From positions 915 through 64,914 of the IMG/VR virus record IMGVR_UViG_3300049856_000084: DNA of 64,000 nt. One strand, written 5' to 3'. Shown one piece after another: positions 19,308 through 20,684 of this stretch; position 1 is the stretch's first letter; each line of letters starts with the position of its first letter. The DNA comes from a virus. Taxonomy: Duplodnaviria; Caudoviricetes. The translations under genes were made by a program, and so were the position numbers. Under the pieces are notes generated by a model, which saw nothing but the letters and a program-made list of their open reading frames with translations, did not search any database and was not told the origin of the DNA.

Positions 19308-19829
19308 ATGGCAAAGAAAAATGCAGTTCGAGAATTAGAGCCAAATCCAGTGCCGGGAACGCCCGGTGTTGATGTTGAGCCAAACCACGCAGATGCAGTT
19401 CGCAATGGGCAGGAAGTTGAGGCTCAAGCCAACCGTGAGATTCTCAAGAAGTTTCTTGACGAATTGAAGGATTGGGTTACTAATTCACCAAAGGCCGCAG
19501 GGGTTGGCAAAGACTGGGGACCGGAACCAGTGGCACCATATGGCATCAAGGTTAAGGTTTATCCCGATAATCGCTTTGAAGTGCTGATCGGCGAAAAGGT
19601 GACTACTATCACGGCAAAAGACATCACGCCGGTTCCACCGACAAACATCAATGCGGTTGGTGGCCCGGTCGGTGGACCAATTCCTGATAGTCCTGGGCAA
19701 CCGAGCAACCGCTTCTACAACATCGGCGGATCGAAGTATGTTCCAGGCGACCGCTACGAAACAACGGATGGCAGCATCTACATTTGCATCGCCAATCTGT
19801 TTTACACCTGTTGGCTGAAAGTTCGATAA
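19308..19829 (+). CDS. Pro/Gly-rich hypothetical protein
   Basis: AAGGAG RBS; followed by GGGGC-TTCG-GCCCC hairpin at 19842-19855. Confidence 0.65.
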   Translation: MAKKNAVRELEPNPVPGTPGVDVEPNHADAVRNGQEVEAQANREILKKFLDELKDWVTNSPKAAGVGKDWGPEPVAPYGIKVKVYPDNRFEVLIGEKVTTITAKDITPVPPTNINAVGGPVGGPIPDSPGQPSNRFYNIGGSKYVPGDRYETTDGSIYICIANLFYTCWLKVR

Positions 19830-19940
19830 CCACAACCTCACGGGGCTTCGGCCCCTTCTGAGCGGTTCGGCCTTGAAAAAGTTCGGTATGGCTGGTACAG
19901 AAAGCCGAATATAATTGCAAGGCCGTTCCGCTGAGAGTTT

Positions 19941-20139
19941 GGGAATGTAGCTAACTGGATAAGCTTGTGGTCCGCAAGATCACGGCTGACGATGTGGCGA
20001 AATGGCATACGCGCTGGTCTAGCAAACTGGTGTTAGGTAAAGCTTAAGCCTAGCGTGCTGGTTCGACCCCAGCCATCGTTAGATAATCATCCGAACCCGA
20101 GGGTGGTTGATTCGAGTTCGAGTCTCGACATTTCCACCA
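19941..20139 (+). ncRNA. Outer tRNA-like RNA (G3:U70, A73, encoded CCA) enclosing a whole tRNA
   Basis: Acceptor GGGAATG/CATTTCC-ACCA; D arm GCT-AACTGGATA-AGC; T arm TCGAG-TTCGAGT-CTCGA; three arms between D and T arms. Confidence 0.75.
19988..20081 (+). tRNA. Class II tRNA, anticodon AGC (Ala) on a Leu-like body, no encoded CCA
   Basis: Acceptor GACGATG/CATCGTT-A; D arm GCG-AAATGGCATA-CGC; CTGGT-CTAGCAA-ACTGG; long variable arm; GCTGG-TTCGACC-CCAGC. Confidence 0.8.
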
Positions 20140-20171
20140 AATTTTGAAGTGATGAGAGAAGGGGAAGACTA

Positions 20172-20684
20172 ATGGAAAAAACAATCACAGTTCACGGTGA
20201 AGAGTGCATCGTCACGCTTCAGGATGATTTTACGTTTATAGCGTCGTACAGCGACGCCGAATACAACACCAAATATGTCAATGGTGAAAGCTTAAAAGAG
20301 GTTCGCGCCAATCTTGCGGCGGCGATCCCCAAGCCTGAAAAGTCGAACGCTCCGAAGAAGCAGAAAATTGAGATCAAAGCTATCCATTGGATGGCGGTCA
20401 TAAATCGTTACGATAAGCCACCATCGAACGAACCCATTACCATCACTGGTGTGCATCAACGAGATGGACGATCATTGCTAGGGTTTTATGATAATCACCC
20501 GAAAGCATCATTTGAGCCAGGGGGAAAGTATAGCAATGCTTGTTTGCTGGTTGCCGATGCACCTGTATCTGAGTTACTGCTTTTGAAACAGACCGCCGAA
20601 ATGCACAAGCAGAACTTTGACGCCACGTTGCATAAGTACCGCTTCGATCCAACAACGATTCCCGGCTATAAGAAGGGGTTCTAA
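20172..20684 (+). CDS. Hypothetical phage protein
   Basis: AAGGGG RBS; 170-aa ORF right after the RNA gene. Confidence 0.65.
   Translation: MEKTITVHGEECIVTLQDDFTFIASYSDAEYNTKYVNGESLKEVRANLAAAIPKPEKSNAPKKQKIEIKAIHWMAVINRYDKPPSNEPITITGVHQRDGRSLLGFYDNHPKASFEPGGKYSNACLLVADAPVSELLLLKQTAEMHKQNFDATLHKYRFDPTTIPGYKKGF

Follow-up and report, generated by a model that had tools for sequence, protein, structure and literature searches.

A tRNA nested in the variable loop of a second, tRNA-Ala-like frame in a phage genome, and its possible role as a one-piece tRNA mimic

Introduction

What does a phage make from one tRNA gene lodged inside another? In phages, genes for tRNAs are commonly taken to supplement the codons of the host. 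The subject here is a 199-nt element of an uncultured phage, in the IMG/VR virus record IMGVR_UViG_3300049856_000084 (Caudoviricetes; 64,914 nt, 89% complete according to CheckV). We analyzed positions 915 to 64,914 of this record, a stretch of 64,000 nt that is nearly all of it and is referred to here as the window. The element occupies window positions 19941 to 20139, the numbering used throughout, and occurs in a single copy. Annotation pipelines give the locus an ordinary tRNA-Ala label, which is wrong whether the product is one RNA or a released inner tRNA; the element is a real, unusual RNA gene mislabeled as tRNA-Ala by tRNA finders. At this locus, the phage keeps the recognition parts of a tRNA-Ala (acceptor identity, T arm, and CCA), disables the anticodon, and loads the variable loop with a second tRNA module. 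Here, we describe the anatomy of the element, its two tRNA ancestries, and the retention of its junction in one diverged relative, and weigh what it might do.

Anatomy and folding of the element

Two tRNA frames are interleaved in the 199 nt: an outer one, here called the shell, and an inner tRNA mounted on an extended stem, flanked by two hairpins. The features are as follows.

19941-19947, + strand: outer acceptor 5′ strand (G1 G2 G3...), 7/7 pairs with 20129-20135, pair probability 1.00
19950-19964, + strand: outer D arm, 3 bp plus an A.A mismatch, GG in the loop, D stem pair probability 0.83
19965-19985, + strand: hairpin 1, a degenerate shell anticodon arm, 6-7 bp stem, pair probability 0.93
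19986-20082, + strand: inner tRNA module with a 9-bp stalk (19986-19994 with 20074-20082), pair probability 0.93
19988-20081, + strand: inner tRNA proper, class II, 23-nt variable arm, A73, no encoded CCA
20021-20023, + strand: inner anticodon, AGC
20085-20108, + strand: hairpin 3, a second extra arm in the shell variable region, 8-bp stem, 8-nt loop, pair probability 0.97
20112-20128, + strand: outer T arm, 5-bp stem, loop TTCGAGT
20129-20135, + strand: outer acceptor 3′ strand with U70, followed by A73 and the encoded CCA at 20136-20139

The outer acceptor pairs are, in order, G1-C72, G2-C71, G3.U70, A-U, A-U, U-A, and G-C. A first-pass annotation, made by a model from the letters of the window, had delineated most of this anatomy, and the outer acceptor, D arm, T arm, and ACCA, the two hairpins, the inner cloverleaf, and its 9-bp extended stem were all read at the positions that it gave. 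The alanyl-tRNA synthetase (AlaRS) determinants that it listed on the outer stem (G1-C72, G2-C71, G3:U70, and A73) are likewise all in the sequence. It had also placed three arms between the outer D and T arms in lieu of an anticodon arm. All three exist, but they do not replace that arm: hairpin 1 is the shell's own anticodon arm, as indicated by its loop alignment with a phage tRNA-Ala and by tRNA detection on the shell after deletion of the insert (see below). The loop of hairpin 1 reads CCGCAAG, or CGCAA if counted as 5 nt, and lacks U33.

The minimum free energy (MFE) fold reproduces the junction helices of the element. Thermodynamic pair probabilities are low (0.02-0.27) for the arms within the inner cloverleaf and for the outer T stem. 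The nested-cloverleaf fold, at -60.9 kcal/mol versus -69.8 for the MFE structure, lies 8.9 kcal/mol above the latter. The folding z-score of the whole element is modest (-2.3).

The shell is a split tRNA related to tRNA-Ala

In the native sequence, ARAGORN and Rfam detect the inner tRNA only and never the shell. Deleting 19986-20108 in silico, a comparison that the first-pass annotation had proposed alongside detection on the full locus, led ARAGORN to call a 76-nt outer tRNA with hairpin 1 as its anticodon arm. Such calls hardly arise by chance: none of 2000 joins of shuffled shell halves produced one, and random window 45-mers joined to the real 3′ half did so once in ~2000 trials. The shell is thus a real split tRNA, and since its insert-deleted form is recognized with hairpin 1 as the anticodon arm, the inner tRNA and hairpin 3 together are an insertion of 123 nt (19986-20108) in the variable-loop position. 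ARAGORN labels the rejoined shell Cys(gca) because of its shortened anticodon loop.

The sole strong database match of the shell is the 3′ end of a tRNA-Ala(UGC) of Vibrio phage nt-1 (HQ317393.2; L132:1452-1527). From the T arm to the CCA, 29 of 32 positions are identical, as are 19 of 25 at the 5′ end; the acceptor stems differ once, the T loops are identical, and both molecules have G3:U70, A73, and an encoded CCA. The loop of hairpin 1 aligns with the nt-1 anticodon loop but is one base shorter, lacks U33, and sits on a longer stem. Most bases of this stem are not those of the anticodon stem of nt-1, yet all seven positions are paired (7/7), which is not expected of a dead gene. Where nt-1 has a 5-nt variable loop, the shell has its 123-nt insert, and the native shell, unlike the nt-1 tRNA, goes unrecognized by ARAGORN and Rfam. 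To judge from these alignments, the shell descends from a phage tRNA-Ala. It keeps the whole tRNA-Ala acceptor set (G1-C72, G2-C71, G3:U70, A73, and the CCA end) and has neither a 7-nt U33 loop with an NGC anticodon nor a variable loop of 4-5 nt. Having lost the ordinary decoding loop, it is evidently incapable of decoding in the usual way. AlaRS charges acceptor/T-arm minihelices that bear G3:U70.

Two features of the compared phages were seen in passing. In nt-1, the annotated coding sequence of an HNH endonuclease (L132:1050-1493) overlaps the first 42 nt of the tRNA-Ala(UGC), which is itself unannotated. Acaryochloris phage A-HIS1 (FN436268.1) has an unannotated, highly structured intergenic stretch (L133:820-1030) with a T arm identical to that of the shell at its end, followed by an acceptor-like strand; ARAGORN makes no call there, and the stretch may be a piece of a permuted transfer-messenger RNA (tmRNA) or another tRNA-like RNA.

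The inner module combines a Leu-type body with an alanine anticodon

ARAGORN calls the inner tRNA (19988-20081) tRNA-Ala(agc), and it scores 43.1 bits against the Rfam tRNA family (RF00005; gathering threshold, 29). It has the 7/5 acceptor/T domain, canonical T loop, and U33 of that family, and its anticodon loop, CUAGCAA, has both U33 and A37. The 3:70 pair is C-G rather than the G3:U70 that identifies tRNA-Ala, and the "Ala" label is owed to the anticodon only. Hence, the first-pass statement that the inner AGC reads Ala stands for the anticodon but does not extend to the body, which aligns with tRNA-Leu and lacks G3:U70.

Database matches of the inner D-arm region include phage tRNA-Leu genes (7 of 20 rows, with weak E-values). 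We aligned the module with three of them, from Roseobacter phage DSS3P8, Streptomyces phage Muntaha, and Cellulosimicrobium phage DS1, and obtained 36 invariant columns and a mean column identity of 71%, with a nearly identical D arm and the anticodon arm in register. A73 and a long variable arm are also shared. These traits point to a class II, A73-bearing, Leu-type tRNA body, which departs from the phage tRNA-Leu genes in several ways. An Ala anticodon, AGC, takes the place of their CAA or CAG, in a loop that reads CUAGCAA rather than CUCAAAA or UUCAGAA. The variable arm has 11 additional nt, position 1 forms a G.U pair with position 72, the stem has a 2-bp extension, and the whole is embedded in a second tRNA. 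The extension arises from pairing of bases -1 and -2 with A73 and G74, which completes the 9-bp stalk. An in-frame GCG...TAA stretch within the inner tRNA overlaps its helices. No match to the inner tRNA was found in E. coli genomes.

Relatives of the locus

Searches of IMG/VR, JGI metagenomes, GTDB genomes, and GenBank phages yielded no full-length homologue of the element. A blastn search with 19800-20300 against GenBank phages gave no match. In IMG/VR, a pattern describing the architecture matched three times, each time tandem tRNAs (3/3), and a 5′-half pattern did not match. The lineage-specific version of the architecture pattern had 22 matches in metagenomes, all of them tandem or duplicated tRNA-Ala (22/22) and none nested. 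A junction pattern had no match in IMG/VR, JGI metagenomes, or GTDB genomes, nor did a 3′-end pattern in IMG/VR and GTDB genomes. Relatives by large terminase (terL) comprised seven loci; the element was matched in none of five of their records (0/5), and the one complete terL relative has an ordinary tRNA only.

Fragments of relatives were obtained by aligning contigs of four sequencing runs to the locus, with matches from X2, X4, and X5 and none from X3. X2, which comes from another study, covers 19812-19962 and 19982-20132 without differences; X5 covers 20091-20207 with 4 differences; and X4 and X5 carry diverged versions of the inner-to-outer junction. Since X2, X4, and X5 all span the 3′ junction of the element, this junction is not an assembly artifact. 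The 5′ junction (19985/19986) is bridged by only 4 bases in these runs.

The X4 sequences come from a diverged relative of the entire locus and fall into three pieces, with intergenic flanks that no longer align. Over 123 nt at the end of the upstream open reading frame (ORF) the relative has 6 differences and a 3-base gap, and a 151-nt contig aligns to 20105-20142 with 4 differences. This relative keeps the 3′ strand of the inner T stem, then that of the stalk, the same AU linker, and AACC-GUAA-GG.... Seventeen of the 18 bases of the stalk 3′ strand of the inner module are retained, and a U72-to-C change turns G1.U72 into G-C. Hairpin 3 has 4 bp and a GUAA (GNRA) loop instead of 8 bp and an 8-nt loop, on the same basal pairs; resizing with pairing kept has the look of a structurally constrained helix. 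Of the 38 bases in the outer T arm, acceptor, and CCA region, 34 are retained, and the order is maintained, from inner 3′ end through hairpin, outer T arm, and acceptor to CCA. The letters preceding the inner T-stem 3′ strand (...GTAAAT; 30 letters visible) do not fit a canonical 7-nt T loop. According to the first-pass annotation, homologues with an intact inner tRNA and decaying outer acceptor/T-arm pairing would indicate a relic. X4, a single and partly visible relative, looks otherwise, with its outer 3′ region kept at 34/38 and its hairpin 3 resized but paired.

A one-piece tRNA mimic as the favored reading

Three roles, all hypothetical, had been suggested in the first-pass annotation: alanylation of the RNA as one molecule, a decoy for tRNA-targeting defenses, and release of the inner tRNA with a two-piece outer tRNA left behind. 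We favor, tentatively and as something short of probable, the reading of the element as a one-piece, non-decoding tRNA mimic with predicted alanine charging: one composite tRNA-like RNA of ~199 nt, made from two tRNA genes. It would be transcribed in the rightward early operon, between two orphan genes. RNase P would then cleave the outer 5′ end, and the 3′ end would be trimmed to the outer CCA. The molecule would remain in one piece because the inner -1 and -2 bases pair with 73 and 74 and the inner tRNA has no CCA. AlaRS would load the 199-nt RNA with alanine, a prediction based on its known acceptance of minihelices with G3:U70. The mimic would read no codon and would instead occupy or distract a host tRNA-recognizing factor, the candidates being a defense nuclease or toxin, or a translation-quality factor. 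These steps, from transcription and processing to charging and target, are predictions.

We prefer this reading because the shell, with its disabled anticodon loop, still has precisely the features that are read by RNase P, the CCA machinery, AlaRS, and EF-Tu, because hairpin 1 is remodeled yet paired, and because hairpin 3 and the outer 3′ end persist in the diverged X4. A further reason is the mounting of the inner module, which looks built in as an arm, with its 9-bp stalk, no CCA, and two extra pairs with A73 and G74. If the element is made as one RNA, its modular two-tRNA design joins the few known phage tRNA mimics, such as the tag-less tmRNA of DS6A, and provides a concrete substrate for testing what such mimics bind.

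Several observations weigh against a one-piece mimic, beginning with the want of any full-length homologue in the four collections named above. Relatives are visible only as fragments, and X4 comes without the shell 5′ half, hairpin 1, and most of the inner tRNA. Its outer 3′ region differs at 4 of 38 positions, a rate above that of the upstream coding sequence (6 differences and the 3-base gap over 123 nt), and the shell may be drifting there. The evidence for selection on the element is that of fragments of a single relative. Among the five runs found to contain this DNA none is an RNA run. The inner tRNA is a good one (43.1 bits, canonical T loop, U33, and A37) and fits a released tRNA equally well. 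Finally, no partner protein is evident, both flanking genes being orphans.

A bolder extension strikes us as quite doubtful: the 199-nt RNA as a two-headed, bivalent early decoy, in which an alanylated shell and an uncharged Leu-type body would trap a tRNA-inspecting host factor (an anticodon- or acceptor-directed nuclease or toxin, or quality control), and which would belong to a wider, undescribed class of phage RNAs with tRNA-Ala bodies.

Alternative readings

A first rival is a nested precursor, which we regard as rather unlikely. The inner Leu-type tRNA (AGC) would be released by RNase P and 3′ processing, receive its CCA by addition, and be charged by LeuRS, so that GCU would be read as Leu by a deliberate mistranslator like tRNA-ProA, and the shell would be a processing or stabilizing scaffold or a two-piece tRNA-like remnant. 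Bacterial LeuRS ignores the anticodon. The inner tRNA passes both Rfam and ARAGORN, its canonical CUAGCAA loop lines up in register with the loops of phage tRNA-Leu genes, A73 and a Leu-type D arm are present, and a nick in the variable region would leave the shell halves joined by the acceptor stem. Streptomyces tRNA-ProA (PMC10404621) offers a precedent for a non-Ala body with AGC that mistranslates Ala codons. Nevertheless, the inner tRNA has no encoded CCA although the shell encodes one, and no dedicated synthetase adjoins it, the flanking genes being orphans without a Pfam domain on record. Pairing of -1 and -2 with 73 and 74 is unfavorable for RNase P and 3′ trimming, the visible X4 letters before the T-stem 3′ strand lack a canonical 7-nt T loop, and Ala-to-Leu mistranslation would harm the phage's own proteins too. 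GCT makes up 22% of Ala codons (32 ORFs), an unremarkable share that by itself favors no reading. Were the inner tRNA released, a phage Leu-type tRNA reading an Ala codon would be a phage case of programmed mistranslation. The same anatomy could be a relic at the DNA level, in which a small segment with a tRNA gene and a hairpin entered a phage tRNA-Ala gene by insertion or recombination and inactivated it, leaving at most the inner tRNA in use; this we consider unlikely. The broken shell anticodon loop and the A.A at 13:22 are as expected of such an event, as are the absence of full-length relatives from the collections and the position of the element among orphan genes. Elsewhere, a viral locus, L016, holds a tRNA-Phe in an anticodon loop, where inner processing would cut the outer tRNA, and L127 and L065 resemble similar interruptions (all three are described below). 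Against a relic, the outer acceptor pairs at 7/7 and the T stem at 5/5, hairpin 1 is remodeled but fully paired, and in X4 hairpin 3 is resized on both strands with pairing kept and the outer 3′ end retained with its CCA. In addition, searches of the 89%-complete record for an integrase, resolvase, or Y1 transposase came up empty, and no direct repeats were seen by eye at the insert borders.

The element might, very improbably, have no role in trans at all and serve as punctuation in cis, an RNase P or RNase E processing site that separates messages and sets their stabilities. Its location suits this, 111 nt after one stop and 32 nt before the next start, with no sigma-70 promoter or intrinsic terminator detected around it and with two stable hairpins just 5′ of it, the longer of which keeps its base in X4. 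However, a single plain tRNA or hairpin would suffice for punctuation, which leaves the G3:U70/A73/CCA set, the second tRNA module, and hairpin 3 unexplained.

Comparison with known systems

Our literature searches, which covered no supplements, where cases might occur, brought up no account of one tRNA nested within another in phages. The first-pass remark that the architecture is unfamiliar in phages is in line with this, but L016 is a further nested case. The element is best filed among phage tRNA-derived mimics. Mycobacteriophage DS6A encodes a tmRNA reduced to its tRNA-like domain (TLD-only, tag-less), and a molecule similar to it strongly inhibits tmRNA, perhaps by titrating SmpB (PMC4131195, PMC11915505); such a mimic can thus act as an inhibitor. 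Like the element, the DS6A RNA is a phage-encoded, non-decoding tRNA-like RNA of alanine identity that has a T arm and ends in CCA. The tRNA-like domain of tmRNA has neither the D stem nor the anticodon-arm hairpin that persist in the shell, and although the alanine-type acceptor and T arm are shared, that hairpin and the 123-nt insert argue against membership. Streptomyces tRNA-ProA and tRNA-ProX (PMC10404621) resemble the inner module in that a non-Ala body carries AGC (A34) and is called tRNA-Ala by tools; they are free-standing, Pro-type, and located beside a dedicated ProRSx, whereas the module is Leu-type, nested, and has no synthetase gene nearby. Allo-tRNAs, defined by a 12-bp acceptor/T domain in an 8/4 or 9/3 arrangement (Mukai et al. 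2017, via PMC7609411), and irregular tRNAs, known from soil and sediment metagenomes, share with the module a class II body, an anticodon that mismatches identity, and a sediment habitat, and some have G3:U70 or predicted five-stem junctions. In contrast, the module is 7/5, or 9/5 counting the stalk, and not 12-bp 8/4 or 9/3, and we rejected this identity.

Other candidate identities were discarded as well. Against the tmRNA models (RF00023 and permuted forms), the element scores 11.8 and 20.2 bits (gathering threshold, 47), at its 3′ end only; there is no ARAGORN tmRNA call, and the shell has its D stem and anticodon-arm hairpin. A YrlA-type Y RNA is disfavored by the lack of a TROVE (Ro60) match in the phage's own record, with the control positive in 2 genomes, and of an Rfam match at E ≤ 10. 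For a group I intron-containing tRNA, no Intron_gpI match was found in the window at gathering or at E ≤ 10, and the 123-nt insert is in the variable loop and not the anticodon loop. Interpretation as an attP or tRNA-gene fragment conflicts with the presence of both shell halves, and searches for Phage_integrase, Resolvase, and Y1 transposase in the record gave no match. Splicing by a phage ligase was dropped on the absence of RNA_ligase and RtcB matches in the phage's own record; an Rnl1 search of the record had no match either, though its positive control matched nowhere. The G.U at the third stalk pair is G-C in X4 and does not qualify as a hidden Ala identity element, and kissing of the hairpin 3 loop with the inner T loop is not supported by the GUAA loop of X4. 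AcrIIIA1 (PMC11662646) and the csRNA catalogue (PMC10690425) appear to have no bearing on the locus.

Stable RNAs C and D (species 1 and 2) of phage T4 are longer than a tRNA, are located with tRNA genes, have tRNA-like ends, and lack a known function. We know of no nested complete tRNA or alanine identity set in them and liken them to the element by description only.

Genomic setting

The large terminase of the phage is P22-like, and its best matches (41-44% identical) are proteins of Vibrio, Pseudomonas, and Salmonella phages, which makes a proteobacterial host likely. The runs with this DNA are labeled freshwater and freshwater-sediment metagenomes. The element is just right of a switch from leftward to rightward genes, between ORFs 19308-19829 (upstream) and 20172-20684 (downstream). 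Neither flanking protein has a PHROG or related loci in IMG/VR, each is a singleton in a set of 5.8 billion proteins with no Pfam domain on record, and the ESM Atlas returned no usable relative for either; by these searches, both genes appear to be orphans. A Pfam search of 10 neighboring ORFs retrieved nothing RNA-related. The promoter/terminator scan gave no signal around the element. Two hairpins lie between the upstream stop and the shell.

19842-19855, + strand: small G+C hairpin after the upstream ORF stop, without a U tract, identified by folding
19856-19937, + strand: long stable hairpin directly upstream of the shell 5′ end

The small hairpin, which X4 retains with a changed loop, is probably a 3′ stabilizer rather than a terminator. 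Region 19836-19942 folds at -51.6 kcal/mol (z = -4.5), and none of 200 shuffles was equally stable. A TATAAT occurs in the distal part of the long hairpin, a part not seen in the visible X4 sequence. Since X4 shows only the base of this stem and then a short closing sequence, a promoter role for the TATAAT seems unlikely.

Other nested or non-canonical tRNA frames in phages

IMG/VR was scanned for pairs of T loops at a distance of 25-55 nt in which 12 bases and CCA come after the second loop; this produced at least 121 matches in at least 120 stretches. An ordinary ARAGORN tRNA owns the first T loop in 71 of the 121 matches listed. These 71 loci and the window were subjected to a delete-and-detect screen for nested tRNAs, in which 13 viral loci gave an "outer tRNA" call. 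Eight of the 13 were inspected (all except L034, L049, L081, L115, and L121), and among these eight loci from the matches listed only L016 was a clean nested tRNA. It is a 153-nt element (IMGVR_UViG_3300018430_000106; L016:4972-5124) in a phage tRNA array, with a complete tRNA-Phe(GAA) scoring 72.4 bits in the anticodon loop of an Arg-like tRNA frame that has a perfect 7-bp acceptor, D arm, T arm, and GCCA; no full-length relative was found in GenBank phages. L016 and the window element share the principle of a complete tRNA inside a second frame with its own acceptor stem, D arm, T arm, and CCA. They differ in the insertion site (anticodon loop in L016, variable loop in the window), in the outer frame (Arg-like versus Ala-type), and in the extra hairpins, which L016 lacks, and have no sequence similarity.

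In eight of the 121 matches listed, a complete 7-bp GGG...TCC-A-CCA acceptor (with G3:U70) and a T arm surround a non-tRNA interior, over 44-106 nt. Frames of this kind, tRNA-like and of alanine identity but non-canonical, are common in the tRNA regions of phages, and we count this in favor of a one-piece mimic.

Further features of the scanned loci are recorded here in their own right. The eight Ala-acceptor frames are L025:3081-3180, L051, L119:7970-8075, L126, L079, L113, L058, and L122; several have a second T-arm-like hairpin in place of the D arm, and most have no Rfam match. At L065:3636-3840, in a 146.7-kb complete viral record (G007), a tRNA-Thr(UGU) has a 129-nt anticodon-loop insert, which is itself a tRNA according to Rfam (L065:3670-3795; 33.8 bits). 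This phage, the only one of 5 records checked to do so, encodes a T4 Rnl1-type RNA ligase (PF09511, 62.6 bits), which suggests splicing by tRNA-end processing and ligation. L127, in a 164.9-kb viral record (G010), has the 5′ three-quarters of a tRNA-Asn-like sequence separated by 240 nt from a matching T arm, acceptor, and CCA. A tRNA-Gly(UCC) lies in the gap, and the locus looks like a tRNA interrupted near its T arm.

In the same 71 of the 121 matches listed, an orphan T arm, 12 nt, and CCA that tRNA finders leave unclaimed come within ~55 nt after the ordinary phage tRNA. When the window is added to the matches listed, 27 of 122 such ends read NNNNTCC-A-CCA. L118 (~48 nt, directly after a tRNA-Met), L088, L111, L106, L059, and L046 are mini tRNA-like elements that immediately follow ordinary tRNAs in phage arrays; they combine a 7-bp acceptor with a short D-loop-like linker, T arm, and CCA but lack an anticodon arm.

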